The position numbers and the translations under genes are program-made. From Desulfatiglandales bacterium (lineage in GTDB: Bacteria > Desulfobacterota > DSM-4660 > Desulfatiglandales > Desulfatiglandaceae): DNA of 64,000 nucleotides. Below the pieces are notes generated by a model. That model saw only the letters and a program-made list of their open reading frames with translations, did no database searches and was not told the DNA's origin. The number at the start of each line of letters is the position of its first letter. Position 1 is the stretch's first letter. This document shows positions 10,504-29,595 of the stretch, in pieces. Location: contig OY759599.1 of assembly GCA_963662465.1 (NCBI GenBank), positions 1,568,001 through 1,632,000 on the forward strand, read 5' to 3'.

Positions 10504-10598
10504 TTGGTGTGAGACTTAGGGTTCAACTTTTCAGATGGAATTTTGGGTATATTTGATGTCCTGTGGATGGAACATCTGTCTTTCCATTATGGAAGTGA

Positions 10599-10877
10599 AT
10601 GAAAATAGATCAGATAAGGGGATATTTGGTGAAATACTTAATATACCTATTCGGTGCGCTGGTTTTAGTTCTGCTTACGCCCACAGTAAACGTGGAAAAG
10701 TTACACTATGAAAAGTGGTATCAAGTTACGCCCAGAGCAAACGGAAAAAAGTTGCACTATGAAAAATGGTATCAGGAGAGATGGTGTAAGGCGAATGGTG
10801 GGTAGATGGAAGTGGTATTTCCGGACAAAACCCGATGTGATTGTTTGACGAACACTCACGCCATTGAATTTGATTTT
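10599..10877 (+). pseudogene. 5' part of a hypothetical exported nuclease-like protein (in-frame TAG at 10803; split by IS at 10878)
   Basis: Hydrophobic N-terminus, duplicated KLHYEKWYQ, then EVVFPDKTRCDCLTNTHAIEFDF, which continues in frame at 29404. Confidence 0.75.
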
Positions 10878-10936
10878 CAGACCATTCCGGATCGTTTTAA
10901 GTACAGATCCTAAGACATGTTTTTGGTACACTTCGT

Positions 10937-11432
10937 TCAGGTATTCTCGGCATACTGATTTTCGAATTTGACCTTCAGGCCAAGCCCTCCCCACCAGGTA
11001 ACCCTGTTGAGCCCACGTTCAGAACGACTCTGCAGAAGACGACCAATCGCGGACTGGAGTTCTCCCTCTCCCATGTCCAGATAGGTAAGTTCGAGATGGT
11101 CTCCACGTTGACGAATTTTACAGTTGTGCCTCCCAAATAGCAAGTATCGAAAGGTCGATAGTGTTCTCTTGTATCCTGCTGAATCTCTGACAAACTTTTC
11201 ATCCAGGGACTGGAGGAAGTTCTCGTAGGCTAGCCTGGCAATCTGTACGCAGTAGAAGTTGGTCTCTATCTTCTCTGGATCTTTACCCAGGATGTGATCT
11301 ATGAAGTAGCTGTGGATCAAATCCTTTAGCCCGTTTTCGATGGGCCAGCGTAGCCTGTATCTCTCCAAGACTTCTCGATTCGAGAGATCTTGAAAAGTCG
11401 TTCCGAAACAACGCACATCACCTGTCTTCTTG
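10937..11432 (-). pseudogene. Outer-IS transposase, fragment 4 (C-terminus)
   Basis: YRLRWPIENGLKDL = Y-R-E-K catalytic E motif. Confidence 0.85.
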
Positions 11433-13230
11433 CAGCAATTCCCGGTCAAGAATTTACTCACAGAGTTTGAAAAACATATTTCAAAAACAAACCCTGAGAT
11501 CAGATCCTTTTCAGAAAAATTGTATTAAATCCACTATTACCTCCCTCGATTTCTTGCAGGTTGAGCTTCTTTGACAAGAGTAAGAGCATAAAAGCACGAG
11601 TTAGGGCAGAGATATCCATTTCCGGAATCTCCAGTTTTTTATTAATGAGAGCATTTTTGTATGCGAACTTGGGCATGACAAATTTAACCACTGTTATATA
11701 GAATAACTGGCGCTTGAAACTTTACGCCATAATAGAGGGCTTCATAGAGCATCCTCATCGATTTGAATTCAAAATCTCTAAACAAAGCTCTCATCCGTTC
11801 CCACAATTCCCTTTTTGAGCCGAGTTTATGCCATGCGGCTATAAATAGAGGGCAACAAAGCTGTTGAGTTTGATCCACCAAGAATGCCAGCATCATGAGC
11901 ATCGCAAAAACAACACTCAGATTCTTCTTGCCGAGCCCGTAGTTGTGTTCAAAATGATATCCTTGGTTCTTAAGAGTATTGAAGGTTTCATTTTCGATCT
12001 TCCATCTCGCACGGCCGCCTCGCATTAGCTGGTATGCATTGTCCTTTCCTATTAAAAAATCTGTCACCCAACTAAAATGTTTTGTTTTTTTCGGTGTAAT
12101 TTCCCAATATTCCAGAAAGTTAACCAGCATATTCTTGTTAGAGGCATTGAGAGGTACCTGGTTAATAAATCGGAAACGATGTATTTTTTCCGGATCCTCT
12201 TTATCGACCAATTCGAATTCAGTGACGTCACCATTTATCCGCGCTTGTTCGACGTGATTAAACAAGAAATGGTGATCTCCTTTTTTAACTCCCAGAATAT
12301 AATGAAAATTTTGCTTTTGTATTTCTTCAATGTGGGGTGCATTCGAACTTAACGCGTCCTCTGTTATAATGATAGGCAGATGGGGATGCTCCTCTTTTAG
12401 CTTTTGCAAGAAACGTTTCGCGGCATTACGCTCACAGTCGTTCTTGCTTTGGCCATCCTGCTTGACTATGAATTCCGGAGCAAGCGGAATGACCTCTTTG
12501 AAATCCGGATGGACAATTGCTGCCCCCAACATCTGCTGATAATAGGTTTTTTCGCCGGTTTTTTTCGATACTTTTACCAAACAACTATCAGAGGAAAGTT
12601 TCTTCGATGAGAAGAAACCCGTTCCATCCAAAGATAGAAGATAACAACCTTCGAAAAATACCATACGTTCAAGCACCTTTCCCCTTTGCAGTTCCCAGAA
12701 GATATTCCTATACGGTTTCCGAAGTTCTTCTGCGAGCACTTCATCAAGAATGGTGCGCATCGTACTGTCACATGGGATCTTTCCAATATGGTATATGTTC
12801 CCAAGATTACTATCGGTTTTTCTTCTTTCATCAAAGGCAAGCAACGATGGCTCCTTGAGCGAAAACATTGCAAACCCGGACATCAAGGCATCCGCAATAG
12901 TAATATCGGGATCCTCACGGCAGTCAGAGACTTCAGAAAAATCTTTATGCAGACGCTTGAAAATTGCATCTGCATTAAGATGCTTGCGAACTCCAATCTT
13001 GCCTCTCTCTTTTCTTCCTTTTTGGCTTCTGATTCCCATAGGCAGTAATCATCGGCCAAGTTGATCTGAAAGTCCAGCTTTTTCTGAGAATTGCCAAAAA
13101 AATTCCTGTTTTATTTTAAAAATTGGAGAAAAAAGCCTTTTCAGGCTATTCATTCAACGTAAAGCTTTACGAAAAGGAAATGCCAAAAGGTACTGTCCTA
13201 GCGCCTTTAGAATCTAAGCGGGAATTGCTG
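11433..13230 (-). mobile_element. IS element, 1,798 bp, probably ISNCY (ISDol1-like group)
   Basis: TIR CAGCAATTCCCG at both ends; 9-bp TSD GTCTTCTTG at 11424-11432 and 13231-13239. Confidence 0.88.
11684..13039 (-). CDS. DDE transposase (intact, 451 aa)
   Basis: SLDGTG, TEDAL, GRARWKIENETFNTLKNQGYHFEHNYG. Confidence 0.92.
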   Translation of the reverse strand: MGIRSQKGRKERGKIGVRKHLNADAIFKRLHKDFSEVSDCREDPDITIADALMSGFAMFSLKEPSLLAFDERRKTDSNLGNIYHIGKIPCDSTMRTILDEVLAEELRKPYRNIFWELQRGKVLERMVFFEGCYLLSLDGTGFFSSKKLSSDSCLVKVSKKTGEKTYYQQMLGAAIVHPDFKEVIPLAPEFIVKQDGQSKNDCERNAAKRFLQKLKEEHPHLPIIITEDALSSNAPHIEEIQKQNFHYILGVKKGDHHFLFNHVEQARINGDVTEFELVDKEDPEKIHRFRFINQVPLNASNKNMLVNFLEYWEITPKKTKHFSWVTDFLIGKDNAYQLMRGGRARWKIENETFNTLKNQGYHFEHNYGLGKKNLSVVFAMLMMLAFLVDQTQQLCCPLFIAAWHKLGSKRELWERMRALFRDFEFKSMRMLYEALYYGVKFQAPVILYNSG

Positions 13231-13809
13231 GTCTTCTTGTTCCTTTTGACAACCAAGTGGAGTACCTTGGCGAGATTGTTCAGATCAAACCGTTTTCCCG
13301 CGATCTCGTATTCCTTACCGAAGGCTTCCCATTGGGCTTCGGAAACCACTTCACGCATCATCTGATCAACTCGCTTGTTTCGCTTCATGCACATGATCAC
13401 ATCAACTTGGGAGAACTCATCGACGACAAAGTAGTCGATTACCGGAAAGCTTGTGTATTCACTGTCCATGTATATCTCACGAATCGCATCGCGCCCCAGG
13501 ATCGGATAAAGGTTCTTTTCGCAGAACTCGCGGACAATCCTTGTTGCTCTGCTCGAACCATTGCAGAATGCTATGTTGATCAGAACGTCCGTGTCGAGGT
13601 CCCAGATAACGTGGGGCCGAAAGCCGGGGCAAATATCGCCGGCGGAGTTGGGTCCTTTGCCAATTTCCTCTGCGTCGGGTTGGTTGCCGTAGAACTCTTT
13701 GAAGTGGAAATCCTGTGCGATCCTCTCTCCCCGAATCAAACCCAGGTCCCGCGCCCTGGCGGCCACGTCATTTCGAAGATCCTGGAGGTGTTCGAACTTC
13801 ATATCAACA
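13231..13809 (-). pseudogene. Outer-IS transposase, fragment 3
   Basis: IAQDFHFKEFYG (D1) and IYMDSEY (D2); in frame with the flanking fragments. Confidence 0.85.
13698..13809 (+). repeat. 112-bp perfect direct repeat, left copy
   Basis: Identical to 21294-21405; abuts the IS66-like TIR. Confidence 0.95.
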
Positions 13810-13930
13810 GTGTCCTTTCTGCAAGCCTGCATAGGGCAAATTTTTTCATTTTTTTTTGGGTGGCCGGAAGACGCTAGGTGGCGAGCTCCGTTATCCGGCG
13901 TCTTCTGTCGATCTGATTATCTGTGAGTTA

Positions 13931-14170
13931 CTAAGACTGGGAATTTAGATTTTGCCTGTAATTCCAGGGAAGCCAGTTTTCGGGGTTTACCTTTACCAGC
14001 TCGGGATTTTTGTGAATGGTCAGGAGATATTCGTACGGATTTTCTCCGTTCATGGCACAGGTCTGAATAAGGCTCATAAAGATGTCTCCAATGAGGGCGC
14101 CATGCTCTGTTTTGTAAAACAGGGAGTTTTTTCTGTGAAGAATGGCCTTTTTCAAAGCCCTTTCGCAGAT
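13931..14170 (-). pseudogene. tnpC: IS66 TnpC C-terminal fragment
   Basis: CERALKKAILHRKNSLF...SLIQTCAMNGENPYEYL...WLPWN. Confidence 0.9.
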
Positions 14171-14306
14171 GTAATGCCGACTCCCGGATTATGCCGCATT
14201 ACAAGAATTTTGTGGGATTATTCGTGCCTTGAAGTAGTTGCTGACGCGGCATAATTTTTGTGGGATCTTCGGTTTGGCAATCCCGCCAAACGAAAGGAGA
14301 GACCAC

Positions 14307-15551
14307 ATGAAAACATTCAGTAATTTCGTATCGAAAAACAACCCGCATTCGAACCTATGTCAAACCCATGTCAACTCCTTCCTATCACACCTTCGCACTC
14401 TGGGGTATGCAGAACGGACGCTACGGAAAAAGCGTCCAGTTGCTGCCTCTTTTGCCCGATGGACAGTGGGGAAGCGGCTTACTGTAAACGATCTAAACGA
14501 ATCCCATCTGACCGAATTCGTGGAGCGTTTGCACAAAAGGCAAAAAGCCCGGATAAAATTCGAAATGGCTGCCCTGCGGCTTTTTCTCAGCTATCTGCGC
14601 CAAGAAGGTGTGGTTCCAAATCCTCCAATACTTGATGCTTCACCCGTGGATGATTTTAAGCGGACCTACATAGAATACCTGCGAAAGGAGCGAGGACTCG
14701 CCGAAAACTCAATTCTTGTTTATTCGCCTTTCATCAGTGATTTTCTCAATGATCGGTTAGCCCAAACCGGTTGCATCTCTTTCCATGCATTGGATGCCCT
14801 GACAATCCAAAATTTCCTCCTCGATCGCATTCAAAACCGGTCGAGAGAATACTCGAGGCTTCTGGCCGCCGCCCTCCGATCATTCTTGCGGTTTCTTTAC
14901 CTTCGCAAAGAAATAACAATTGATTTTTCCCTATCGATTCCCAGAGTCCGTAAATGGCATCAGTCCGAGGTAATTGGCTTTCTAACCCCCGACCAGGTAG
15001 AAAGGATCCTTTCGTCAACCGATCTGTCGACGCCACGTGGAAGACGCGATTATGCCATTTTGCTTCTTCTTGCACGACTCGGTCTGCGTGCGGGAGAGAT
15101 AATCACGATAGAACTCGGTGACATCCTCTGGCGGATCGGGGAGATCGTTATTCGCGGCAAGGGCCAAGTACAGGACCGACTACCATTGGTCTCAGATGTC
15201 GGAGATGCTTTAGCGGTTTATCTACGTCAAGACAGAGGAGATAGCGTATCGCGACGGGTTTTTCTGCGAATGATTGCTCCACGCGTTGGCTTGGCCGGCC
15301 CAGGGGCGATTGGCCATATTGTACGCCTTGCATTTGCCCGAGCCGGCATATGTGCTCCGAGCCGTGGCGCAGCCCATCTCTTCCGCCACGGTCTGGCCAC
15401 CAGAATGATCCGCCAGGGTGCCTCCATCGCTGAGATCTCTGAGGTTCTCCGTCATCAATCCCAGAGTTCCACAGCCATTTACGCGAAGGTCGATTTCGAG
15501 ACACTCCGTGAGATTGCTCCGCCTTGGCCGGGTCAAGGAGGTGTGCGATGA
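14307..15551 (+). CDS. ritA: Tyrosine recombinase RitA
   Basis: LGLRAGE, RGKG, HLFRHGLA, VLRH, TAIYAKVD; AGGAGA RBS. Confidence 0.92.
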   Translation: MKTFSNFVSKNNPHSNLCQTHVNSFLSHLRTLGYAERTLRKKRPVAASFARWTVGKRLTVNDLNESHLTEFVERLHKRQKARIKFEMAALRLFLSYLRQEGVVPNPPILDASPVDDFKRTYIEYLRKERGLAENSILVYSPFISDFLNDRLAQTGCISFHALDALTIQNFLLDRIQNRSREYSRLLAAALRSFLRFLYLRKEITIDFSLSIPRVRKWHQSEVIGFLTPDQVERILSSTDLSTPRGRRDYAILLLLARLGLRAGEIITIELGDILWRIGEIVIRGKGQVQDRLPLVSDVGDALAVYLRQDRGDSVSRRVFLRMIAPRVGLAGPGAIGHIVRLAFARAGICAPSRGAAHLFRHGLATRMIRQGASIAEISEVLRHQSQSSTAIYAKVDFETLREIAPPWPGQGGVR

Positions 15552-16489
15552 CTGCAATCCGTGACGCACTTGCACGGTATTTAACAGTCCGCCGTGCCCT
15601 CGGTACTCGTCTACAAGAGCCAGCCACGACACTTGGCTATTTTGTAGATTTCCTTGACCTTCAGGGAGCAAAATTCATCACCACTGATCTCGCCCTTCGT
15701 TGGGCGTGCCAGCCAAAGCATGTGCAAAGAGCGACATGGGCACGCCGGCTTACTATGGTCAGGCAGTTTGGTGCTTGGCTGAGTGCATTCGACCCGCGAA
15801 CGGAAGTACCGCCAAAACGGCTCCTCAATGCCCGTCATCGGCGCAGTAAGCCCTACATCTATACCGAACAGGAAATAGAACATCTCATGATCGAGGCCGC
15901 TTTGCTCCCGTCACCGATGGGATTGCGCGCATTAACCTATGTGACGCTCATAGGTCTTCTTGCCGTTACGGGTATTCGGCCAGGTGAAGTGGTAGCTTTG
16001 AATCTGTCTGATGTGGATCTAAAGAACGGTATTCTTGTAATTCGGCAGACGAAATTTGGAAAGTCCCGTTTTGTTCCGATTGACGATTCGACATGTTCCG
16101 CCCTTTTGGATTATGCAAATCGACGCAATAACTTTTACACACGTTTTCAGACCAACAGTTTTTTTGTCTCCGAACGAGGCACAAGACTAAGTCTTGGATC
16201 CGCCCGACGTACATTCGCCAAAGTATCATGTGCTGTCGGTCTTCGAACTGCAAAAGATGGCTGCCGAATCGGTCGCGGACCAAGGCTTCAGGATTTTAGG
16301 CATACGTTTGCAACAAGAAGAATTATCAAATGGTATCAGGCCGGATTGGACGTGAACAGAGAGTTGCCAAAGCTCACTTCCTATCTCGGCCACTCAAACG
16401 TCAGTCATACTTATTGGTATATTGAGGCGGTCCCGGAGCTCCTCCAGCTCGCTTCCGAGCACATGGGCCGGCAAGGAGGTGCACAATGA
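15548..16489 (+). CDS. ritB: Tyrosine recombinase RitB
   Basis: TGIRPGE, TKFGKSR, QDFRHTFA, YLGH, TYWY; ATGA overlap with ritA. Confidence 0.92.
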   Translation: MTAIRDALARYLTVRRALGTRLQEPATTLGYFVDFLDLQGAKFITTDLALRWACQPKHVQRATWARRLTMVRQFGAWLSAFDPRTEVPPKRLLNARHRRSKPYIYTEQEIEHLMIEAALLPSPMGLRALTYVTLIGLLAVTGIRPGEVVALNLSDVDLKNGILVIRQTKFGKSRFVPIDDSTCSALLDYANRRNNFYTRFQTNSFFVSERGTRLSLGSARRTFAKVSCAVGLRTAKDGCRIGRGPRLQDFRHTFATRRIIKWYQAGLDVNRELPKLTSYLGHSNVSHTYWYIEAVPELLQLASEHMGRQGGAQ

Positions 16490-17481
16490 AAGCCTCCAGC
16501 TTTTCATCACTTCTCCAGCGTTTCTTTACGGACAGATTGCTCGCACAGCTTGGCGCCAGTCCGCACACTGTTGCCGCATACCGGGATACCTTCCGTCTGT
16601 TGCTTCGCTTCGCCGCGAAACACTTCGGGCGTTCGCCTTCTGAACTGCGCATAGAAGAGCTCGATGTTTCTTTCCTGTGCAAGTTTATTCAACACCTTGA
16701 ACTTGATCGCTGTAATTGCATCCGGACACGGAATAACCGCCTTTCCGCCCTGCAAGGTTTCTTTCGGTATGTGTCCTTCAGTGAACCCGCACTGTCATTG
16801 CACTGTCAGAGGGTTCTGGCGATCCCTGCCAAACGGTACGAGCGCCGTCCGGTTGAGTTCCTGTCGGATGAAGAAACTGCCGCTCTTGTTGCAGTTCCCG
16901 ATTCAAAAAAATGGATCGGCAGGCGTGACCGAGCGCTCCTGTTGCTCGCCTTACAGACAGGATTGCGAAATAGCGAAATCACATCGCTTCAGTGCAAGGA
17001 TGTGGAACTCGGCACCGGTGCTCACGTCCGTTGCCTCGGAAAGGGTCGAAAGATGCGATGTACCCCTTTGCGCCCTGATGTCGTCGCAGTGCTGAAGAAA
17101 TGGTTAAAGGAGCAAGATGGCCATCCACAAGATCCTCTCTTCCCAAGCTCACGCGGTTTACGTCTCAGTGCAGATGCTCTCCAGCGACTCGTTGCCAAAC
17201 ATGCAGCCATGGCGAGTCATACATGTCCATCCCTAAAAGGGAAAACAGTTACACCCCACACCTTGCGGCATTCGGCGGCCATGAGCCTGCTCCGACGTGG
17301 TGTTGATCTGACCGTGATTGCTCTCTGGCTCGGGCACGAATCAAATGAGACAACACAAATCTACTTGCATGCTGATATGGGAATTAAGGAGCAAGCCCTT
17401 GCCCATACCACTGCAAGTGGTTCCATACCTGATCGGTATCTTCCTGAAGACCCTTTGCTAACATTCCTTGAGAGCCTTTGA
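16486..17481 (+). CDS. ritC: Tyrosine recombinase RitC
   Basis: TGLRNSE, GKGRK, TPHTLRHS, WLGH, TQIY; ATGA overlap with ritB. Confidence 0.92.
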   Translation: MKASSFSSLLQRFFTDRLLAQLGASPHTVAAYRDTFRLLLRFAAKHFGRSPSELRIEELDVSFLCKFIQHLELDRCNCIRTRNNRLSALQGFFRYVSFSEPALSLHCQRVLAIPAKRYERRPVEFLSDEETAALVAVPDSKKWIGRRDRALLLLALQTGLRNSEITSLQCKDVELGTGAHVRCLGKGRKMRCTPLRPDVVAVLKKWLKEQDGHPQDPLFPSSRGLRLSADALQRLVAKHAAMASHTCPSLKGKTVTPHTLRHSAAMSLLRRGVDLTVIALWLGHESNETTQIYLHADMGIKEQALAHTTASGSIPDRYLPEDPLLTFLESL

Positions 17482-17615
17482 TTATGCCGATTGAAAGAGC
17501 CATGAGAATAAGGGGTCCAACGCAGTTTCGACCAGTTAAAACGGATAAAATTGGCAATACGGCATAATCCGGGAGTCGGCATTATATCTGTTATGCCGCT
17601 CGCGGCATAACAGAT

Positions 17616-18080
17616 ATTGTTGTCAAGGGGCGCTCCAGGAACTTCCAGGAACCGGGTTAACGCCTTCCAGTGATTCAGCATATACTGAATTGCCTTTCCC
17701 AAACCGGAATTCGGTTCCACGAGTTTTTCGTCCAATTGCTTGTTGAGCCAGCAATACAATTTATCCATCAAGGGTTTGCTTTCAGCCTGATGGAAGGCCA
17801 GACGCTCTTCGGGTGACATGTTTTCGTCCCTGGCAATCTGATCATTGTGATACACTTTGGCAAGGGTATCGATCACAAACCGGCACTCTTCTGGAAAGCT
17901 CGGGGCGACATCCACGAAGTATCGGCGGGCATGGGTCAGGCAGTTTGCCATAATGACATCCAGGTCCTCCGATGAATTTCGAGACAAGGCATCGCACATA
18001 AGCTGAGGTGGACTGAGACCGGTCAGGCGATTTTCAAGAAGCGCCTTCAGATTTTCACCCGCGTGATTTCTGCCGGTAAA
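17616..18080 (-). pseudogene. tnpC: IS66 TnpC middle fragment
   Basis: FTGRNHAGENL...MCDA...CLTHARRYF...LGKAIQY...PLDNN. Confidence 0.9.
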
Positions 18081-18661
18081 CTAAACAACCACCGTCTTGA
18101 AGACGGTGGGTTTAAAAGCGCGGACTGAAAGTCCAGCAAGACCGGCTTTAGCCGGTAAATTATTCGATATCGAAACGATCGTTTGGGTCTTTTTCAAAAT
18201 GGTGCTCAAGATACTCTTGAATCATGTCCTTGGTAAGCTCGCCAGATGTGACACAGAAATACCCCCGCGCCCAGAAATGCTTACCCCAGTATCGTTTCTT
18301 CAGGTGTGGGAATTCCTCAAAGATCTTTCGCGACGCCCTTCCCTTCACCCTTCGCATTATGTCCGAAGGGGAAATATTTGGTGGCGCCGAAACGAGAATA
18401 TGCACGTGATCCTTGCTGACCACACCACGCACTATCTGGATTTCGAAACGTTCGCAGGTCTGTCGCACGAGTTCCCGAACTCTAAGGGCAACATCACCCT
18501 GCAAAACGTGATAGCGGTATTTGGTTACCCAAACAAAATGATATTCAATCTTGTAGCGAGTGTGGCTTCCTTGACGGTATTCCATGCCAAGTATTATAAG
18601 CCAACCGCTAGCAAAATGCTACCCGCCTGAAAGGCGGGGGTTTTAACCTTTTCCAGAAACA
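18081..18661 (-). mobile_element. IS200-type element (tnpA only), 581 bp, inserted in IS66 tnpC
   Basis: Subterminal hairpins CCCGCC-TTTCA-GGCGGG and CCACCGTC-TTCAA-GACGGTGG; no TSD; inserted 3' of TTTAT; removing it restores tnpC VLY|FTG. Confidence 0.9.
18160..18585 (-). CDS. tnpA: IS200/IS605 Y1 transposase TnpA
   Basis: YHFVWVTKYR, DHVHIL (HUH), FWARGYF, catalytic Tyr in QEYLEHH. Confidence 0.95.
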   Translation of the reverse strand: MEYRQGSHTRYKIEYHFVWVTKYRYHVLQGDVALRVRELVRQTCERFEIQIVRGVVSKDHVHILVSAPPNISPSDIMRRVKGRASRKIFEEFPHLKKRYWGKHFWARGYFCVTSGELTKDMIQEYLEHHFEKDPNDRFDIE

Positions 18662-19555
18662 ATAAAGAACCGCCTGGCGGTCATCCATTTTGGATATAAC
18701 ACCGGTGGTAAAAATCTCTTTTCGACCGTTTTTGGTTTCACCTTCCTTCATGAGGCTCAGAACTTTTCCCGTCGTATCGTCAATGTGGAACAACTCCCCC
18801 TGTGCGGATTGTTTCAGTAGTTCGATATACGGCCCTTTGGCCTCCAAACCCAATGGCTCAACGATACCCCACTGGGTTGATGCGGGAACCGGAACACCCA
18901 TCATGGCTTGAAACTGCTGCAACCGATAGAAAGGAACGCCGTTGGCGTATTTTAGAAGGGCAATGGAAACCGCAACCGTTTCATCATGTTTCTGAGTTCC
19001 CATATCTTCAGGAGGCGTTGCGGTAAAAATTTGGCCGCACAGGTTGCAGCGAAGCTTTTCCAGTTCATAAATCGTTCCCGTTAAAGGCGGCGAACCCTTA
19101 ATCCGGATTAACTTTTCGGGAACTTTTAACCGATACACTTTTCCCCTGGGACATTCCGGACAGGGGTCACCATGTTTGAGACTCTCGTGGCTTATGAACT
19201 TTCTTTCGGCGCCGGTAAAAGCCGAAGCACCGTTTCGACCATGGCCTTTCGGTGGGGGGTTGCCGCCTTTTGGACCGGGATCATCTTCCGGATTATCGCC
19301 GTCTTCGGAATCGGCGTCATCTTCCGGATCATTAAACACTTTATCTTTCTTTTCGGATTTTTGCCCGAACAAGAGGTTTAGCAGCCGCTTGATGGATGCG
19401 GCCTTCTGGTCCAGTACCTGACTCAGGGCTTCAATGGTATCCGCCATGACCTTGATAATCTCGTAGTCGGATTCGGAAACCGCCGGTTTTATCCTTTCAA
19501 GAAGGGACTTGACGTCTTCGGGGGTTAATTCGAGTTTTTGGGGTTTATCCGGCAT
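18662..19555 (-). pseudogene. tnpC: IS66 TnpC N-terminal fragment
   Basis: LFGQKSEK, CPECPRG...CNLCG zinc finger, VPFYRL, FHIDDT; the rejoined fragments give a 532-aa ORF. Confidence 0.9.
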
Positions 19556-20423: not shown

Positions 20424-20476
20424 GGCAAAAACATAAGCATGTATGTTTTGAACGCAAGGGGGGGGACCTGGTTTTT

Positions 20477-20824: not shown

Positions 20825-21216
20825 GACTGTTGCCTCCAAAATGTTTGGATCAGGGATGCAACATCAATAGGCCCCTTCACATGGACTTTCATTCTGGCGC
20901 CTGCTTGTTCAAGCTCCAGATTTACTTCAACCGAATCAGCTGGTGGGTTGAGTGGTGGCAATTCTATGAATGTGGGTGGAAGAAGTTCTTCGGTCGGGCT
21001 GTTCGGAATACTTTCAATGCGATCCTTCAGGTCACTGTAATTCAGGTGCAATGCTTTGGAAAGTTTATTAATGCTGAAATTATCCACCAGGGAAACAGCA
21101 GCATCCCATAAGGACTCAGGAATACGGTCCCGTTTCTTGCGGTTTTTGCGCCAGTCGGAAAACTGGGCTTGTACTGCTTCGAGACGTTGCTTCTCTTTTG
21201 ATTTTTTCTTCGCCAT
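20821..21216 (-). CDS. tnpA: IS66 accessory protein TnpA-like
   Basis: WRKNRK...IPESLWDAAVSL HTH and FIEL motif; first gene of the IS. Confidence 0.75.
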   Translation of the reverse strand: MAKKKSKEKQRLEAVQAQFSDWRKNRKKRDRIPESLWDAAVSLVDNFSINKLSKALHLNYSDLKDRIESIPNSPTEELLPPTFIELPPLNPPADSVEVNLELEQAGARMKVHVKGPIDVASLIQTFWRQQS

Positions 21217-21293
21217 GGGCTATCCTCCTGAAAGGTTTTAGCCCAAGTTAAGTCCCCCGCGCAGCATTTCATGCGGGCTTGCCGAAAGGACAC

Positions 21294-21405
21294 TTTGAAG
21301 TGGAAATCCTGTGCGATCCTCTCTCCCCGAATCAAACCCAGGTCCCGCGCCCTGGCGGCCACGTCATTTCGAAGATCCTGGAGGTGTTCGAACTTCATAT
21401 CAACA
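21294..21405 (+). repeat. 112-bp perfect direct repeat, right copy
   Basis: Identical to 13698-13809. Confidence 0.95.
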
Positions 21406-22100
21406 AACCCATCGTACAGGGCCGTTTTCCCCGGAAAAACACCGACGCCGGCGGCAACCGCCACAGAGCGGTCGCTGTTTCTATTGAGGTGTCCCACCGT
21501 CTCGTATCCAGCCAGGATACGGCAGACGTTCAAGAGGACAAGATTGGTGATCTCACTGCCCTCGCCCCTCTTGGGAGCGTAGACCTGGAGAGCCTCGCAG
21601 ACCCCCAGATCATCAATGAACTGCGCAAGCACAATCGGGCCAGGATCGCAAACCGCAAATGCTCGGCTCTGCATGCGATTCAAGAAATGTGCAAAGTGTG
21701 CGTTCAACTTCTTCGGAACCCGAAACTGGCCTGCCTCGGCCGCATCCTTTGCTGTCTTGAGAAGCGGCGCCGGTTTCTCCGGTACCTCTTCTCCCCAAAG
21801 ACCTCGCAATCGTACAGGCCTACGTTCCTTCTCCAAGAGTTCCCAGTATCGCAGAACTTCGTAAAGCGCCGATCGGGAACAGCGCAACTCCATCCGTGCC
21901 ATCAGCTCATCCAGACTGAAACGCGGATGTTCCATCTTCTCCTCAATGACACGTATTTCCAATTCATCGGAAATTTTCCCTCGACCCCGACCGGGCTGTA
22001 TCCAATCCACCAACCCCCACACACCGTAGTTCCGAAAGCGATACAGGTACTTGTAAAAAGTTGGTCGCGACATGCCATAGCGGCGTATTGTATCCCCTAA
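21294..22100 (-). pseudogene. Outer-IS transposase, fragment 2
   Basis: LGDTIRRYGMSRPTFYKYLYRFRNYGVWGL HTH, running into the duplicated VDMKFEHL...FHFK segment. Confidence 0.85.
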
Positions 22101-22167
22101 CTTGAAAGCATAGGAATTTCCATTTTTGATTTGGCATATCAAATAGTTGTTGCAGTGATGGCATTAA

Positions 22168-23365
22168 ATGTGTCAAAAAAAGCACATTATGCATATGCCA
22201 TCAAACCAAAAAATTGATAAGGAGACTTTCCGGACGATTTTTATTGATCATTGGGAATCATTCAAAGAGCATCATCCAGGGTATGATAATTCGCAATATG
22301 AAGATCCGGTTCAGAAAATGCTTGGTTGCGGCAAGGAAAGCGCCGGATATAGCGAGCACCGGTGTGTTTATTGCGGTGGTGATGTTCGCCGGATAGGTTT
22401 TAGTTGCAAGAGCTGTTTTTGTTTATCCTGCGCCAAGAAATATGTTGACGATTTTGTCAGTCAAGTGAGTAGGGTGCTTCATGGGGGCATGAATTACCGT
22501 CACATTGTTTTGACAATTCCCGAGCAACTGAGAATCGTTTTTTATAAGGCTCGAAATGATGGACGTTTGTTATCGGCTTTTATGAGATGCGGGTACGAAT
22601 GTTTGGAGGATGTTGTCGGAACGGTTCTTCGGCGGAAACTGAAAATAGGAACGATCGTCGTTGTTCAAACGCATGGTCGATCCGGTCATTATAATCCGCA
22701 TTTGCATATCATCATGACAAGCGGTGGGATAAATGAAGATCTGTGCGGTTGGTTTGATTTAAGGTTCTTCAAGTATGAGATTATACATAAGAAATGGCAG
22801 TATCATCTATTCAGAATGCTCAAGTCCCATTTTAACAGCAGTGCGGTCGATAAACTTATTGATGAGCTGTGGAAAAAATACCCTAAAGGTTTGGTAGCCA
22901 ATGTGAGCAAGGGTAATGTTCCTGAGACATGTGGGGGTCTGGCGCGATATTTGGCGAAATATGTTGCATCTCCTCCGATAGCTCTGAGACGGATAATCAG
23001 TTATGATGGCCAATATGTTACCTATTGGTACAATGATCACATGACAAAATCCAGGAAGGTTGAAACCGTGGAAGTGGATGTTTTTATCGGTCGAATGGTT
23101 CAACACATAATGCCCAAAGGGTTCCAGCGGGTTCGTTATTATGGGCTACAGGCTACGAAAACTTTTAAGAAATGGTCGGAAGTAATACGGAAAGGGATGA
23201 AGGCTTTGGGGCGTGGGATTAAAGGAACGTATCAAGTCGTAAAAGCGAAAAGATATCGAGAACGTTATAAGGAGATCAGCTCTCAAGATCCTTTTTTGTG
23301 TCGTTATTGTGGCCATGAAATGGTGCTATGGAAGATATGGCATCCAAAATATGGAGTTTTATATG
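22168..23365 (+). pseudogene. IS91-family Y2 HUH transposase (interrupted near the C-terminus)
   Basis: Zn-binding SCKSCFCLSC, HIVLTIP, YNPHLHII (HUH), RYLAKY (Y2), QHIMPKGFQRVRYYG. Confidence 0.9.
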
Positions 23366-23727
23366 CTTCAACGCTAATCAAAACTGAACCAAGTTTGCTA
23401 ATGGAAATTGAACCATTGGCTGTCACCGCCGGTGAGTACGGCCCTCAGGTATAGCGGACGATGAGGGATCCATAAGTGGCGGCAAAGGAGTCGTTGATGT
23501 AGATTTACTTTTCAATAAATTTTTATAAAATCTATTTTCTTTGGATTTGGTTTTCTTCTTCCAAGACAGAGGCTTGGTTAAGTGGAAATGCGATTTACTT
23601 TGTAGAATGGATGGTGAAGGCCCGAAGTAGCCGCTTCGGGCCTTCTTTTTTGACCACCGGATAGAGCCGGAAGCCACACACACGCCAATTTTATATAAGT
23701 GTGTTTCCGGCCAATTGCAAGGCCGGA

Positions 23728-24144
23728 ATGATGGGAGATGTCCTTTTAAGAGTGGTTCAATGCCGATGTTGTGGTTGCTTTTTTCACGTCTGTCGGTCGT
23801 GTTGGCGTGGCCAGGCCTATTGTGGGGAACGATGTCGCAGGATACGCCAAAGACAGCTGCACCGGAAAGCTCAGGGGAAATACCGCAATTCGAAAAAAGG
23901 GAAAGAGCGCCGTCGTTTGTACGAAAAAACAAAAAAATCCAAAAAAAATGGACTGAACCCTGGTGATGATAGTTCAACACCTCAAAAAGACTGTGATATT
24001 GAACCCAAAAAGCGGTCGGGGAACCGACCCAGCTGTCTTTTTTGCGGGTCGATCGGGGTTGTTGTGGACCATTTTCCTCGCCGTGCTTATGCAGGGAGGG
24101 TTTTTTCAGATGTAACAGGCTTTGAGAAAACCCCATATCCATGA
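23728..24144 (+). CDS. Cys-rich zinc-finger protein (IS21 passenger)
   Basis: CRCCGCFFHVCRSCWRGQAYCGERC...CLFCG; start codon uncertain. Confidence 0.65.
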   Translation: MMGDVLLRVVQCRCCGCFFHVCRSCWRGQAYCGERCRRIRQRQLHRKAQGKYRNSKKGKERRRLYEKTKKSKKNGLNPGDDSSTPQKDCDIEPKKRSGNRPSCLFCGSIGVVVDHFPRRAYAGRVFSDVTGFEKTPYP

Positions 24145-24156
24145 CAGGAGAAAAAA

Positions 24157-24576
24157 ATGATCAAAAAAAGAGTCCTTTTTCCCGAAAGAGTGCGTGTCAT
24201 CAATGGAAGCTTCGGCTTTCTGGAGCATCGTTTTTTGAGAAACGGCTTTTGGGAGAGCCTGAATCATCATGAGCTGCTGCTCTACATTTTTCTGGTGTTG
24301 GTATCTGACAAAAACGGGCTCTCTTATTATGGTTACGACAGAATCTGCCGGATTTTAAAGGTGCATTTGGATCAATATATCGATGCCCGCGATGGCTTGT
24401 TGGACAAGGATCTGATTGGGTTTGATGGCCGTCTGTTTCAGGTTCTTTCGCTTCCCAGACGTCCTGTGATTGTGAAACAGGTAAAGGAGATCCGGCAAGG
24501 AAATTGGGTCAGTCTTGGAGAAACCATAGAGGAAATCTTTCGGGAGACTGGGTATGGAATCCATCCGAACCGTTGA
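24157..24576 (+). CDS. Winged-helix-like DNA-binding protein (IS21 passenger)
   Basis: SFGFLEHRFL...LLLYIFLVLVSDKNGLSYYGYDRICRILK; AGGAG RBS. Confidence 0.65.
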   Translation: MIKKRVLFPERVRVINGSFGFLEHRFLRNGFWESLNHHELLLYIFLVLVSDKNGLSYYGYDRICRILKVHLDQYIDARDGLLDKDLIGFDGRLFQVLSLPRRPVIVKQVKEIRQGNWVSLGETIEEIFRETGYGIHPNR

Positions 24577-25438
24577 TATTCATTTGCTGGAGTTGCGTTA
24601 CGCTCATTGCCGGATAATGAATCACCAGGCTTTAAAGCGATTGAGGGATTCCATCGAAACTTACGGGCAGATCGTTCCGGCCCTGGCTATTGAAGAAAAA
24701 GACAAACTGATTCTGATTGATGGCTACCTGCGTGTTCGAGCGCTTTGTGCTTGTGGAAAGGACCGGATATGTGTCCAATTCTCAAAAGAAAACGAACAAA
24801 ATGCCATGTTTTCGCTTTTAACCAAGGCCAATGAACGGCAATGGGAAGTCATTGAGCAGTCTGTTTTACTTCAGGAATTACATCGGCGTTTTGGGTGCAG
24901 CCTCTCCCATATTGCAACCCGAATAGGGCGCGACAAGAGTTTTGTAAAACGGCGGCTGGACCTGGTTGAAGCCCTGCCGGAAAATATTTTGAGAACCGTG
25001 ATTGCAGGCTCACTTTCAACCTGGGCTGCCAGCCGTGTCATGGCGCCGTTGGCGCGCGCCAACGGTGAAGACGCACAAAAACTGTTGGCCCACCTGGAAA
25101 AAGAACCTCTATCCACAAGGGAACTGGCCCGTTTCTACGCACATTACCAGAAAAGCAACCGGTCTGTTCGAGACCACATGCTGGAAAATCCATCCCTTTT
25201 CATAAAAGTTCTCGAACAAAGAACCCAGTCTAAACAAGCCAAAGAAGTTCATGATGGACCGGAAGGCAAATGGTTCAAGGATATTGAAATGGTATATGCG
25301 GTTCTCAAACGTCTGGTGAAAACCGTTTCGCATGTCCATTACCCAAAAAGCGATCAGTTGAAGAAACAAACGCTCAAAACCTGGGTGAAAAAGATAGAAA
25401 AACAAGCACTGGAACTCAAGAAAGCGACCCAATTATGA
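24554..25438 (+). CDS. ParB/RepB/Spo0J-like protein
   Basis: LRDSIETYGQIVP...LIDGYLRVRAL ParB-N motif, followed by HTH SLSHIATRIGRDKSFVKRRL. Confidence 0.85.
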   Translation: MESIRTVDIHLLELRYAHCRIMNHQALKRLRDSIETYGQIVPALAIEEKDKLILIDGYLRVRALCACGKDRICVQFSKENEQNAMFSLLTKANERQWEVIEQSVLLQELHRRFGCSLSHIATRIGRDKSFVKRRLDLVEALPENILRTVIAGSLSTWAASRVMAPLARANGEDAQKLLAHLEKEPLSTRELARFYAHYQKSNRSVRDHMLENPSLFIKVLEQRTQSKQAKEVHDGPEGKWFKDIEMVYAVLKRLVKTVSHVHYPKSDQLKKQTLKTWVKKIEKQALELKKATQL

Positions 25439-26817
25439 TCCGACAATCCAAAAAAGATGCCATTGTGGAATTGAAAAAAACCGGCATGAGTTTGCGCGAC
25501 ATCGCCAAAACCCTGAAGGCCGGTCGCAATACCGTCACGAAGGTTTTAGATGATCATGACGAAGAGGCGGTACCCCAAAGGAACTCCCGGTATGAAGAAC
25601 ATGTCCCGTTGATCCGCGAGCTTTTCAAGGAATGTAAAGGAAATGCCGTGCGAGTAGCCGAGGAACTGGAAAGCCGCCAACAGATCAAAATCCCTTATCA
25701 GAGTCTGACCTGGATTATGAGAAAGTACGAGATCCGGGAACGTAAAAAAAGACGGGCGGGCCAATACCATTTTAAACCCGGTCAGGAGATGCAGCATGAT
25801 ACGTCACCCCATCTGGTTGTCATTAATGGGAAAAAAATGTCGACCCAGTGCGCGTCCCTGACCCTGGCCTTTTGCCGAAGGATTTTTATTCAGTATTACC
25901 CCTGTTTTACCCGGTTTGAGTGCAAGGTTTTCCTAAAAAAAGCATTCGAGTTTATGGACGGGGTGTGTTCCCGGTGCATGGTTGACAACACCAATGTTAT
26001 TGTGGCCGGCGGCACCGGGCCTGATGCATTGATTGCGCCTGAAATGAAATACTTCGGCGATATGTATGGAACCCGGTTTGAGGCCCATGCTGTAGGAGAC
26101 GCCAATCGAAGTGCCCGTGTGGAAAGGCCTTTTCATTTTGTGGAAAACAATTTTCTTCCCGGTAGAACATTTGTTAGCTGGCAGGATTTGAACCGGCAGG
26201 CAATCGACTGGTGCCGGAATACAAGCGATAAAAAGTTTAAACGGGCTTTAGGGATGACGCCGGATGAGGCCTATGTCATTGAAAAGCCATATCTCATTGA
26301 TTTACCGGCATACCAGCCGCCAGTCTATGTGGCAGAACACAGGGTAGCCGATGTTCAGGGATATGTGCACTTGGACACCAACCGCTATTCAGTCCCTGAA
26401 GCGCTGATTGGGAACTCCCTGGAAGTACAGAAACATTGGCTCAAGGTCATCGTTTACGACAAAAACACAAAAGTGGCGGAACATGACCGCATACTGGATA
26501 AACGCAACACCCGAACAACCCTGCCCGGTCACCATGTTCCCATTCGAAGAAAAAAAGATCCCCGAATCCCTTCAAAAGAAGAACAGCTGTTGACGGGAGA
26601 GGATGCCATCCTGGATGAGTATGTGGCTGAACTGAAGAAAAGAAGTCACGGTCGCGGTGTGGTCAAGTTACGTCGGTTGCTTCATCTGAAACGCACTTAT
26701 CCCGGGGAACCTTTTTTGAAAGCCATAACACAGGCGCTTAAATATGGACTTTTTGATTTGTCGCGTCTGGAAAACATTATTCTCGATTATATCGCGGGAG
26801 ACTTTTTTGATCTATGA
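25435..26817 (+). CDS. istA: IS21 transposase IstA
   Basis: N-terminal HTH, PGQEMQHD, MVDN, SARVERPF, NRYSVP. Confidence 0.92.
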   Translation: MIRQSKKDAIVELKKTGMSLRDIAKTLKAGRNTVTKVLDDHDEEAVPQRNSRYEEHVPLIRELFKECKGNAVRVAEELESRQQIKIPYQSLTWIMRKYEIRERKKRRAGQYHFKPGQEMQHDTSPHLVVINGKKMSTQCASLTLAFCRRIFIQYYPCFTRFECKVFLKKAFEFMDGVCSRCMVDNTNVIVAGGTGPDALIAPEMKYFGDMYGTRFEAHAVGDANRSARVERPFHFVENNFLPGRTFVSWQDLNRQAIDWCRNTSDKKFKRALGMTPDEAYVIEKPYLIDLPAYQPPVYVAEHRVADVQGYVHLDTNRYSVPEALIGNSLEVQKHWLKVIVYDKNTKVAEHDRILDKRNTRTTLPGHHVPIRRKKDPRIPSKEEQLLTGEDAILDEYVAELKKRSHGRGVVKLRRLLHLKRTYPGEPFLKAITQALKYGLFDLSRLENIILDYIAGDFFDL

Positions 26818-27533
26818 AAAAGAAAATTGAACAGTTACTCATTGATTTGAAGTTTAAAGGCATGCTGAAGGCTCTCGAAGAACAGTTGGCTTCGGCTGAA
26901 AAGAACGGTTTTTCCATTCACGAGGTCATCTACAATCTCCTGGCTGAGGAATTACGTTTCCGGCAGGAGCGCAGCATGATCTATCGGGTCCAGATTGCAA
27001 AGCTTCCATGGGAATGGACCCTCAACTCCTTTCCGTTTGATCTTCAGCCGGGAATACAGAAGAGCCGGATCATGACGTTGTCCGGCCTTGACTTTATCAG
27101 CCGAAGAGAAAACATCGTGTTCCATGGAAAAACCGGCGTCGGCAAAACGGGATTGGCCGTGGGGATCCTTCGTCAAGCCATTATTGCCGGGTACCGGGGG
27201 CGTTTTTATAATGTTCAGGATTTGCTGGATCAGCTCTATGCGTCTTTGGCAGATCGGTCCACCCCGAAACTCCTCAATGCCCTTTGCAGATATGACCTGC
27301 TTCTGCTCGATGAACTGGGATACCTGACCCTCAAAAAAGAGCAGATGAACGCCTTTTTTAAACTCATGAAAGATCGCTATGAAGCCGGTCGGTCCACAAT
27401 TATTACGACCAATCTTCAACCTGAACAATGGTATTCGCTGCTTGAACCAAAGGACATGGTCGATGCCTTGCTGGATCGTCTCAACCATCGCTGCATCAAC
27501 ATTCATATTGATGGTCCTTCCCTCAGAAAATGA
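26814..27533 (+). CDS. istB: IS21 AAA+ ATPase IstB
   Basis: GKTGVGKT, LLLLDELGY, STIITTN, LLDRLNH, GPSLR. Confidence 0.94.
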   Translation: MKKKIEQLLIDLKFKGMLKALEEQLASAEKNGFSIHEVIYNLLAEELRFRQERSMIYRVQIAKLPWEWTLNSFPFDLQPGIQKSRIMTLSGLDFISRRENIVFHGKTGVGKTGLAVGILRQAIIAGYRGRFYNVQDLLDQLYASLADRSTPKLLNALCRYDLLLLDELGYLTLKKEQMNAFFKLMKDRYEAGRSTIITTNLQPEQWYSLLEPKDMVDALLDRLNHRCINIHIDGPSLRK

Positions 27534-27631
27534 GATGTTCGCCAAAGGGCCGGTTTTGAGGTCTGAATATCACCGGTCTGTTTGAATCTCGTTACACGAA
27601 TATCAGAAATTACCTTGTCTTGGAGCTTGAA

Positions 27632-27829
27632 ATGAGAGGTGGAAAACGGGTAGGCGCCGGCCGAAGAAAGAAACCGGAACATTTGAGACGTGAACTGCTC
27701 ACCATTCGTCTCCCCAAATGGATGATTCTACAGCTGAAAAAAAACGGGGAAATTGGATATTTGATTGAGGATCAATTGGCGAAGGGAGGCCTCCTGAATT
27801 TACCGGACGACTATGACATAGACAAATAG
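27632..27829 (+). CDS. Small DNA-binding protein (RGGxRxGAGR motif, RHH-like)
   Basis: MRGGKRVGAGRRKKP...LTIRLP; lies inside the IS21 right end. Confidence 0.55.
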   Translation: MRGGKRVGAGRRKKPEHLRRELLTIRLPKWMILQLKKNGEIGYLIEDQLAKGGLLNLPDDYDIDK

Positions 27830-28098
27830 TTCCTCAATAAGCATTGCCCTTAACCGAAAAATCTAATCCCCTCTTCTCTGCCATCACCATATTGATGGTA
27901 TCCTCATCACTGATTCTTCAACCAGAACGCTACGTGTCTCACCAGCATTTTTAAAATACCATCTGATATACTCTTTCATGCAACCTCTAACAAATTTACA
28001 AGAAAACCCTTCTAAAAGGAAAAGACCAGTGCGCAATATCTGGTTCCGTTTGGATTAGCAAAACTGGTTCCATTTTAGTTAGCGCCCAAGTTTATATG

Positions 28099-28235
28099 AC
28101 GAATATGAAAACATCAAAAACGACAGGTACGGCACGGTTACAGGACAAAATGACAGCGGGGGTGGAAGGCGAGGACTTCCCGTTCGGCCCTCCTCCGGAG
28201 GAATATCCTTACCGTTGTTCCCATTGCCGGCATGA
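28099..28235 (+). pseudogene. IS91 transposase C-terminal tail
   Basis: Rejoining gives GVLY|DEYENIK...* and a 444-aa ORF. Confidence 0.75.
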
Positions 28236-28386
28236 AATGAAGGTAAATGAAGCGATAATAGACGTCGAGATTGCAAAAGCAGAATATGAAGGAAGGAATG
28301 TGGAAGGCTTTATGCCCATTCTCGGTTGCCCTCAGTGCAATCGAGAAACAATGAAATATGCGCAAGGTAGAAAGCCCGCGCGTTAG
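28150..28386 (+). CDS. Small zinc-ribbon protein within the IS91-like element
   Basis: CSHC...CPQC; overlaps the transposase tail; start uncertain. Confidence 0.5.
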   Translation: MTAGVEGEDFPFGPPPEEYPYRCSHCRHEMKVNEAIIDVEIAKAEYEGRNVEGFMPILGCPQCNRETMKYAQGRKPAR

Positions 28387-28394
28387 CGCGCTAA

Positions 28395-28970
28395 GTTCTT
28401 TTTCTGCTTCAAGCCCAGTTCCCGAAATAACTCGAAGCGTAATTGCAGCGCCTCCTCAGGAATGTAAAACGTACCCCTGCGGTCTTTCTTACTTCGCATT
28501 GACCCCGTTTGCGACGTCAACCACCGAATCGCCCGTACGCTCTGCTGGATTCCATACCAGTAGCTCTGGTCATTTTCGTCGCGGCTATTCCCGATTCCGT
28601 GGCAATGCAAGATATGGCTGATCGTTTTCAACGTGGGTCGCGGTGAAAGACCAAGTGCCTCGGCGAAGCGCAATATCATCGTTTCCGTGGCCTTGGGCCT
28701 GGTCATCTTCAGAATCAAAGCGAGACGTTCAAGCTTTTTGTTCTGCTTCTTTGCGCCCAACTCAGGGAAGAGTGCAGCACACCCGTGCTCGATGAATGCG
28801 GTCTCTAACCGGTAGAAGTCAGTCCTGGAGCAACAAGCAGCTTTGCAGGCGTCTGTTATGGAATTCCCTTCCATCCAAACACTACGAAGCATCTCGTAAT
28901 TCTGCACAGCCGGATCGTCGGTAAAGAAAGGTACATCAGTATTGGGGCGCCTTCGGCAGTGCATGGGCAA
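28395..28970 (-). pseudogene. Outer-IS transposase, fragment 1 (N-terminus)
   Basis: NYEMLRSVWMEGNSITDACKAACCSRTDFYRLETAF HTH; the four fragments sum to 2,337 nt in frame (778 aa). Confidence 0.82.
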
Positions 28971-29403
28971 CCGTTGAAGGGAGCTCGGCCAGATAGCTCA
29001 TTTGTTTTTGCGTGAAGATCATGGCCGATATTGTAAATATCTAAACTGGATAAGTCAAGCATTTTTGTATACCCCTATACCAAACACACAGAACTCGCCT
29101 CAATTTTATATAACCATTTGAAATAATAAAGTATTTTGCTGATAGCCATGATCAGACAAGGCCGGAGCTCGGATCGATCGCTGATAGGATTTCCACCACA
29201 GGGATAAAATCTCCTTATTTATAAAGGGATTGGAGCTCAACTCCCGCGTTTTGCGACTATTCAGTTAGGGGGTTTACTTTTTGTTCGGAATGGCTATTTA
29301 CACCGCAATGGAATGTCAAACTTTTTCAGCTAATTGCATAGGAAGTGCATCCGATGACACGACAAAAACTGTATCGAAAAAGGGTCCGGAATGGTCTGAT
29401 TTT

Positions 29404-29595
29404 GGAAAAAAATGGGCTGAATCTATCGGCCAGGCGCTTTACTATTCGATCCAGACGGGGAAAAGGGCAGGGGTAGTACTCATACTGGAAAAACCGGGTG
29501 ATTATAAATATTGGATTCGATTAAATACCATTATTGAGCATTTCAGTTTGCCCATTGACACATGGAAAACAGCGCCGCCGGGCGGTCTTGATTGA
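29404..29595 (+). pseudogene. 3' part of the gene begun at 10599
   Basis: GKKWAESIGQALYYSIQTGKRAGVVLILE continues IEFDF in frame across the TSD. Confidence 0.8.

Follow-up and report, generated by a model that had tools for sequence, protein, structure and literature searches.

Insertion sequences (ISs) lying within other ISs are known from several bacteria; for example, IS1 self-insertion in mutation accumulation lines of Escherichia coli is described as giving IS-within-IS structures at a neutral rate (PMC12065110), and a "complex IS-in-IS segment" is mentioned for Acinetobacter lwoffii M2a (PMC7031236). Another kind of mobile DNA, the RIT element, is characterized by Van Houdt et al. 2012 (PMC3414803) as a 3.5-kb unit with an inverted repeat and a palindrome, and they describe one that interrupts a Tn6049-like transposase gene. 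The RIT literature also reports an insertion in radC (PMC3414803, PMC10214605, and PMC5737581), defines RitA, RitB, and RitC, with RitA recognized by two core-binding domains (PMC8138268), reports nuclease-protected RIT intermediates (PMC5737581), and names target specificity and movement among the points that still await an experimental test (PMC10214605). Here, we describe a locus in which both phenomena meet: a nest of seven mobile elements in a Desulfatiglandales bacterium (GenBank assembly GCA_963662465.1, contig OY759599.1, positions 1,568,001 to 1,632,000 of the forward strand). This whole stretch of 64,000 nucleotides is called the window, and the genome carrying it, a single contig of 8.16 Mb, is called G000. 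From the presence of dsrA above its cut-off and the clustering of the mobile-element proteins with deltaproteobacterial sequences, the host is an environmental sulfate reducer.

In the nest, an outer IS of 2.8 kb has grown to 18.5 kb by six further insertions, and we put at roughly 70% the probability that two processes together explain it: namely, a neutral sink that enlarges itself with every insertion, and one site-specific hyperparasite, the RIT element. As the preliminary description had it, the elements are stacked three deep; the outer IS holds an ISNCY-like, an IS66-like, and an IS91-like element, the IS66-like element in turn holds a RIT and an IS200 element, and the IS91-like element holds an IS21-like one. 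The features other than those of RIT are as follows, with lengths in amino acids (aa) for proteins and with ORF standing for open reading frame.

10599..10877, plus strand: 5' half of the interrupted host gene (156 aa), with a premature TAG at 10803-10805; no Pfam or NCBIfam family
29404..29595, plus strand: 3' half of the host gene
10873..10877 and 29399-29403: 5-bp target duplication ATTTT of the outer IS, left and right
10878..29398, minus strand: outer IS, 2824 bp when emptied, with terminal inverted repeats starting CAGACC
28970-28399, 22104-21406, 13809-13240, and 11432-10937, minus strand: outer transposase, 778 aa in four pieces, with N-terminal helix-turn-helix (HTH) regions and a DDE_Tnp_1-type domain
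11433..13230, minus strand: "ISNCY-like" IS, 1798 bp, with a 451-aa DDE transposase at 11684-13039
11424-11432 and 13231-13239: 9-bp duplication of the ISNCY-like element
13810..21293, minus strand: IS66-family element, 3458 bp when emptied
20821-21216, minus strand: tnpA-like gene of IS66; tnpB at 20477-20839
19545-20423: cargo gene of IS66, DruA/DUF4338-like
19555-18661, 18079-17617, and 14171-13931: IS66 tnpC, 532 aa in three pieces
13698..13809 (left) and 21294..21405 (right): 112-bp exact direct duplication of outer-transposase DNA
18080..18660, minus strand: IS200/IS605-family element, 581 bp, with a Y1 transposase at 18160-18585 and no duplication
22105..28398, plus strand: IS91-family element, 1561 bp when emptied, no duplication
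22168-23365 and 28099-28235, plus strand: IS91 Y2 transposase, 444 aa in two pieces
22098..22104, plus strand: 7-bp target TAACTTG of the IS91-like element, host-derived
23366..28090, plus strand: IS21-like element, 4725 bp, with istA at 25435-26817 and istB at 26814-27533
23423-24142 (minus strand), 24157-24576, and 24554-25438: further ORFs of the IS21-like element, namely one of 239 aa, an HTH gene, and a ParB-like gene
23358-23365 and 28091-28098: observed 8-bp duplication of the IS21-like element

Excision in silico regained the frames of 778, 532, and 444 aa free of stops. The earlier claim that every host frame is restorable nonetheless fails for the outermost gene (10599-29595), because its TAG at 10803 precedes the insertion. 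Uninterrupted versions were also sought in public sequencing runs, and natural empty junctions fall at the predicted bases: 22104>28399 in run X1, 14171>17617 in run X22, and 18079>18661 and 23357>28091 in public contigs; run X1 also contains the outer element without IS66. This comparison covered four of the 24 listed runs (X1, X20, X21, and X22) over positions 13810-29800, and no contig of these runs spans the whole nest. Contig depth rises from the single-copy outer element through IS66, RIT, and IS91 to IS21, in values that are depths and not copy numbers.

The lack of a spanning contig would suit an assembly artefact in which repeats were mis-joined into a nest, as would the uniqueness of the 112-bp duplication and a contig of run X20 that passes from the left part of the outer element through the duplicated segment, fitting the left copy and an IS66-free allele equally well. 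We consider such an artefact scarcely credible, however: target duplications match at four pairs of junctions, excision restores the frames exactly, the IS66 copy in the window has private substitutions, and in run X21 the duplicated segment lies at about twice the depth of its flanks (84.5 versus 40.3), with the reservation that X20 and X21 possibly come from the source sample and are then not independent. The insertions had also been called recent, which holds for five inner elements (no difference to a sister copy) but less so for the IS66-like element (at least 10 differences to its sister copy), while the outer IS has no full-length sister and is undatable.

Each of the six inner insertions does interrupt a transposase gene, but this record is not beyond chance (P = 0.10-0.22), because transposase genes occupy 83%, 86%, and 46% of the three host elements. 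For a genome-wide view, 354 element ends of 21 families were located and paired, with ends lacking a matching duplication, or present as one end only, being dropped; this gave 109 clean events, of which the five in the nest were set aside. A classification of insertions by flanking ORFs, which left many mixed calls, was replaced by reconstruction of the empty site. Repeats (at least 200 bp at 90% identity or more) make up 14.3% of G000, and the mobile-element mask, for which 30 exemplar families were supplemented by the single-copy transposases that seven family scans brought up, covers 608 kb (7.46%).

Among the 104 events outside the nest, 39 fell in host ORFs (0.5 times the expectation from a 75% share), 38 in intergenic DNA (2.4 times; 15% share), and 17 inside another element (7.5% share), with 10 more having one flank in an element. 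Elements are thus hit 2.2-3.5 times as often as their mask fraction predicts (17-27 of 104; p <= 0.002), and this excess, together with the six-of-six record of the nest, is what could be said for general active targeting, in which several IS families would seek out the transposase genes of others. The excess disappears, however, once intergenic DNA is taken as the reference: insertion density is equal in mobile and intergenic DNA (17 vs 38, p 0.78; 27 vs 38, p 0.19), host ORFs are hit at about one-fifth of the intergenic rate (fitted ORF weight, 0.20), and a null model that takes selection into account expects 20.5 events in elements (P(>=17) 0.84; P(>=27) 0.07). Also, most clean insertions of each family lie outside elements, those inside (again outside the nest) numbering 3 of 19 plus two at edges for the IS21-like family, 2 of 12 for the ISNCY-like, 0 of 3 for IS200, and 4 of 12 plus two at edges for the IS91-like. 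General targeting is therefore very improbable, being largely refuted for the IS21-like, ISNCY-like, and IS200 elements. Indeed, the five families other than RIT follow their own target rules, as observed in their boundaries, duplications, motifs, and genome-wide rates, and the equal densities support a neutral sink for their five insertions; purifying selection would be the cause of the overall distribution.

Positive selection for insertions that disable active transposases, so that elements act as mutual suppressors, would likewise leave transposase genes interrupted; no copy of the outer family is intact in G000, and four of the five copies of this IS66 carry a RIT in tnpC. The outer gene was dead after the first hit, however, and later hits add nothing. 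Since full-length sisters survive in the ISNCY-like (10), IS91-like (10), and IS21-like (20) families, disabling one copy removes little, and the RIT pattern is accounted for by site specificity, so that we see hardly any room for selection of this kind.

The RIT element is the exception among the six inner insertions, and its features in the window are as follows.

14166..17616, plus strand: RIT element in tnpC; body 14172-17584, with 35-bp terminal inverted repeats
14238-15551, 15524-16489, and 16486-17481, plus strand: ritA, ritB, and ritC
14166-14171, 17585-17590, and 17611-17616: 6-bp cores C1, C2 (inverted), and C3
17591-17610: 20-bp palindrome

Excising 14172-17616 (3445 bp) gives the natural empty site. 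A Phage_integrase domain is found in each of the three overlapping ORFs, RitA has two SAM-like domains (residues 46-116, weak, and 144-224), and the length of about 3.5 kb, the 35-bp inverted repeat, and the 20-bp palindrome are those of a RIT. All five RIT sites in G000 lie at one core in a tnpC of IS66 type. Four of them are in the IS66 family of the window, and the fifth is in a relative only 70% identical, yet its RIT end is 98.8% identical; at two of the five sites, the body is inverted. The core falls within the tnpC codons D-N-N-I-C|E-R (NN-x-x|ER), a motif kept in all 10 empty tnpC relatives examined. The Glu following the site is presumably a catalytic residue of IS66 TnpC; our literature search found no paper fixing the catalytic residues of IS66.

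Relatives of RitC were collected from genomes (21 loci), metagenomes (the best 80 of 110), plasmids (8 of 307 records), and three relative loci, 111 of them having a RitC match. At 64% RitC identity or more there are 21 loci, 19 of which have a readable end, and 17 of these 19 lie at the IS66 motif, as compared with 0 of 12 at 56-64% identity and 0 of 66 below 56%. The 17 loci form five clusters at 90% RitC identity and come from Holophagaceae metagenome-assembled genomes, metagenome contigs, and Burkholderiaceae plasmids; in genome G106, too, a RIT end lies at the same tnpC codons. More distant RITs are found in other genes of mobile elements, namely ritC of another RIT, istB, and an ArdC-like gene. 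As these comparisons of sequence show, the RIT of the window belongs to a lineage that integrates site-specifically at the NN-x-x|ER codons of IS66 tnpC. With this, one can say what became of the three explanations offered in the preliminary description: the neutral sink fits five of the six inner insertions, active targeting is supported for RIT only, and selection for disabling transposases is not supported.

A RIT-bearing IS66 inherited as one composite was considered and rejected. The IS66 of the window and the copy at 2.49 Mb of G000 differ by 11 substitutions in 3452 bp, as against none in 3413 bp of RIT body (p 0.001), and the RIT end in the 70%-identical IS66 does not fit such a composite, either. 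RIT therefore arrived after the IS66 copies had diverged, or was converted.

The palindrome is always on the Asn-Asn side of the site while the body takes either orientation, and the cores differ between sites as well as between the two ends of one insertion. Judging from these cores and orientations, RIT most likely moves as an excised circle in which two 6-bp crossover cores flank the 20-bp palindrome and either may be used. Two usable cores would produce both orientations of the body with the palindrome fixed in place, and varying cores would be expected because the circle carries spacer bases. The Asp-Asn-Asn codons, read as the reverse complement, resemble the TTATGCCG repeat of the RIT ends, and this likeness may have a role. 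A further and more doubtful step would be to regard the RIT lineage as a widespread, dedicated, reversible hyperparasite of IS66 that homes, one copy after another, to the position before the conserved glutamate of TnpC by way of the two-core circle and, on excision, restores tnpC, thereby switching IS66 transposition off and on; on this tentative scheme, the outer element may itself be a preferred landing site.

Several points weigh against the combination of a neutral sink and a site-specific RIT. As for RIT, the motif pattern was widened after the first pass, the stricter pattern giving 12/19, 0/12, and 1/66 before the 17/19 above. Two close relatives (L189 and L121) lie outside the IS66 motif, C2 equals the local target core at several loci, which needs later inversion or repair and for which a carried core alone is insufficient, and gene conversion could also have equalized the RIT bodies. 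As for the sink, the ORF weight used in the selection-aware null comes from a fit to the very events under test, unknown single-copy elements escape the mask, and ORF calls were mechanical. A local null blind to selection expects 14.3 events; a count of 17 agrees with it (p 0.25), whereas one of 21 or higher does not (p 0.04 to 0.0005). Moreover, when 45 internal junction sites are considered, the 699-aa family N is hit eight times against 1.6 expected and the outer family four times against 0.28, in counts that include one-ended junctions and, for the outer family, were picked post hoc; the genome-wide chance that some 2.8-kb element receives at least three direct hits is about 0.06. Finally, the 112-bp duplication is the only long one among 153 paired copies tested and has no parallel.

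This over-hitting of families N and outer could mean that the island or the outer transposase gene is a local hot spot, physically attracting insertions through AT-rich or bent DNA, an open nucleoid, stalled forks, or bound transposase. Events do cluster (variance 3.0 against a mean of 1.3 per 100 kb, with 35 of 82 bins empty), and insertion sites are AT-richer (GC, 0.44 and 0.41) than the genome (0.50). At G000:7144008, a second IS66 end is found 16 bp within a remnant of the outer family that is 86% identical, and a homologue of the outer element in genome G007 (L090) is split by an IS1595-type element. The outer element itself is not AT-rich (GC, 0.50), however, clustered non-essential DNA predicts clustered events equally well, and genomes G005 and G004, the latter with two identical intact copies, carry the family without interruptions. 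The outer element is probably older than the rest of the nest, and longer exposure is the simplest reading of its over-hitting because it lacks a full-length sister, in contrast to the identical sisters of the five inner elements. We thus regard a hot spot as unlikely.

On the preferred explanation, then, the nest would have formed as follows. The outer IS would have landed in a redundant gene that also bears a nonsense mutation, in a genome where some 30 mobile families were in a recent burst. Insertions into host genes would mostly have been purged, so that survivors would accumulate in intergenic and mobile DNA, each insert inactivating the transposase that it enters and adding a harmless target. 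The ISNCY-like, IS66-like, IS91-like, IS200, and IS21-like insertions would be ordinary events under their own short target rules, and RIT would have reached the IS66 copy in the window after the IS66 copies diverged, as the 11 versus 0 substitutions suggest.

The IS66-like element requires a separate comment. Members of the IS66 family make a target duplication of 8 bp, and the sister at G000:7133218 has one of this length. In the window, such an 8-bp duplication was rejected: the 778-aa frame requires removal of the 112-bp duplication, whereas removal of 0 or 8 bp does not restore the outer frame. The likeliest reading, though a weakly held one, is that IS66 entered sister copies of the locus at two points 104 bp apart and that recombination through the element then united them; 112 bp would also result from an aberrant, staggered strand transfer. 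TnpB (97.8 vs a cut-off of 50) and the TnpC of an intact sister (221.9 bits vs 180) pass the NCBIfam cut-offs, and a natural tnpC of 532 aa exists at L044:5342-6937; the ORF at the tnpA position (131 aa) has no family match. The element is unlike the family in its GTGTCC ends, in the duplication flanking it, and in the DruA/DUF4338-like gene between tnpB and tnpC. This DruA/DUF4338 (Mom-like) domain, a separate gene here, forms the N-terminal part of a fusion with an ISAs1-like transposase at L016:733-1917, present in 13-14 copies in G000.

The outer transposase passes Pfam DDE_Tnp_1 (28.5 vs 23). Once restored, it aligns over residues 17-783 with an intact homologue of 801 aa in G004 (35.6%; L005, two identical copies of 2764 bp), which passes none of the curated cut-offs (IS4_1, the best, 27.8 vs 115; ISH3 20.2 vs 225; IS1634 20.8 vs 100), and it matches clusters of 82 and 112 members, mostly Thermodesulfobacteriota. 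With one large DDE transposase, inverted repeats starting CAG, and a 5-bp duplication, which is borne out by the empty paralogous site at G000:166865-166900, the outer IS is like the IS4-superfamily (DDE_Tnp_1) elements ISH3, IS1634, and IS701; it is unlike these named families in its size (778-801 aa), two N-terminal HTH regions, and failure to pass any NCBIfam cut-off. The family to which it belongs (L005, L080, L081, and L083-L090) comprises DDE transposases of 780-800 aa whose N-terminal part has two HTH regions; it is active in G004 (two identical copies) and multi-copy in G007.

Elements of the ISNCY family (ISMae2 group) have CAG ends, a 9-bp duplication, and a length of 1.4-2.4 kb. The ISNCY-like element has CAG ends and the 9-bp duplication claimed for it, and the label, which rests on this description, is tentative, no NCBIfam cut-off being passed; seven of its 10 full-length sisters in G000 are identical. 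The IS200 element has a Y1 HUH transposase passing NF033573 (160.9 vs 55) and adjoins AATAAA (TTTATT on its own strand) at all four right ends found, with the empty site also read; its right boundary, once placed at 18666 (leaving a tnpC of 530 aa), was corrected to 18660. The IS91-like transposase passes NF033538 (217 vs 125) and contains PF04986 and, as the zinc-binding domain, PF14319; all 1561 bases of the restored element agree with those of a sister copy. It inserts behind a TAACTTG-like 7-mer, as read from empty sites in two of the three hosts tried and in run X1. A left boundary at 22098 (with 777 or 775 aa for the outer frame) was rejected, since empty sites in families K and N show the 7-mer to be host-derived; the third host, G, gave no match.

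Members of the IS21 family typically end in 5'-TG...CA-3'. The IS21-like element works like IS21 but has atypical ends, CTT...AAG in 26 of 26 copies instead of TG...CA (26 ends of each kind occur in G000), and three extra ORFs; IstB passes its cut-off (225 vs 200), while IstA falls short (129.4 vs 160) with IS21 still its best family. At G000:5347739-5354848 and 6062590-6068261, IS21-like copies have swapped flanking duplications, and one ISNCY-like copy is split, which suggests a large rearrangement between IS copies.

The host gene lies in a 1.6-kb segment duplicated at G000:163670-167076. The paralogue has CAG at the place of the TAG, and a pyrrolysine reading of this codon was set aside; the stop may have arisen before or after the outer insertion. 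This segment (window 9470-10877 plus 29404-29595) encodes a 158-aa ORF, an XRE regulator, and the 156-aa gene with a tandem 51-bp repeat, and in its duplicate, the same 1798-bp IS is independently inserted at 164291. Window positions 8194-9922 consist of repeated non-coding hairpin units (a 49-bp family in four copies and inverted repeats of 27 and 25 bp; no Rfam match) that recur elsewhere in G000, at 162-164 kb and at 7.73 Mb. Adjoining the nest on the right, 29632-30084 is a non-coding repeat dispersed over G000, where many places match it at 70-94%. An Rfam search of the window gave no match, and a gene with a metallo-beta-lactamase (MBL) fold at 7127-7795, scoring under all beta-lactamase cut-offs, was named glyoxalase-like.

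Outside the window, a second nest of 19.4 kb and six families occupies G000:7125152-7144555 (L044), where family N is split by three tandem DUF6431 elements and also by an IS66 holding an IS1182-like element. Next to it is an IS66 with an inverted RIT, the left end of which IS66 lies in an internally deleted (547 bp), 86%-identical relative of the outer IS. A further nest has 13.4 kb and five families. L013 (G000:413702-415707) is an element of 2006 bp in about 25 copies, with perfect terminal inverted repeats, an 8-bp duplication, and a 602-aa ORF whose only match is a weak one to DUF6431. Among close RIT relatives, the one at L189:1-1842 (RitC 66% identical over residues 203-331) apparently sits at the YAD(D) motif of a reverse transcriptase.

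In conclusion, the nest is real, unusually clean, composed of known kinds of element, and mostly a matter of survival in neutral DNA, with its 112-bp duplication unexplained. It is a clean natural record of the build-up of mobile DNA in which every junction is legible, and one and the same genome lets a sink and targeting be compared, five families being neutral and one site-specific. The RIT part weighs most, since target choice and movement of RITs are listed as untested (PMC10214605) and G000 has sites of a single element in the filled, the empty, and the inverted state. Its value is tempered by the nests of similar size elsewhere in G000 and by the RIT inside a transposase gene already in print, and the locus is in this sense a showcase of known parts. 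Our literature search found no paper on a comparable seven-element nest and none linking RIT with IS66, although Ricker et al. 2013 or the supplement of PMC3414803 may bear on an IS66 target.

Compared with the known systems, the nest is like the IS-within-IS nests of IS-rich bacteria in that elements are entered roughly as often as the proportion of non-essential DNA predicts and that inner elements are identical to their sisters; it is unlike them in combining seven families and four chemistries three deep and in being free of the deletions by which the other large nests of G000 are scrambled. The RIT of the window is like known RITs in its three overlapping tyrosine recombinase genes, in a length of about 3.5 kb, and in its terminal inverted repeat with a palindrome beside it, and is unlike them in a target that is pinned to NN-x-x|ER of IS66 tnpC across three phyla, in its insertion in both orientations, and in its three 6-bp cores.

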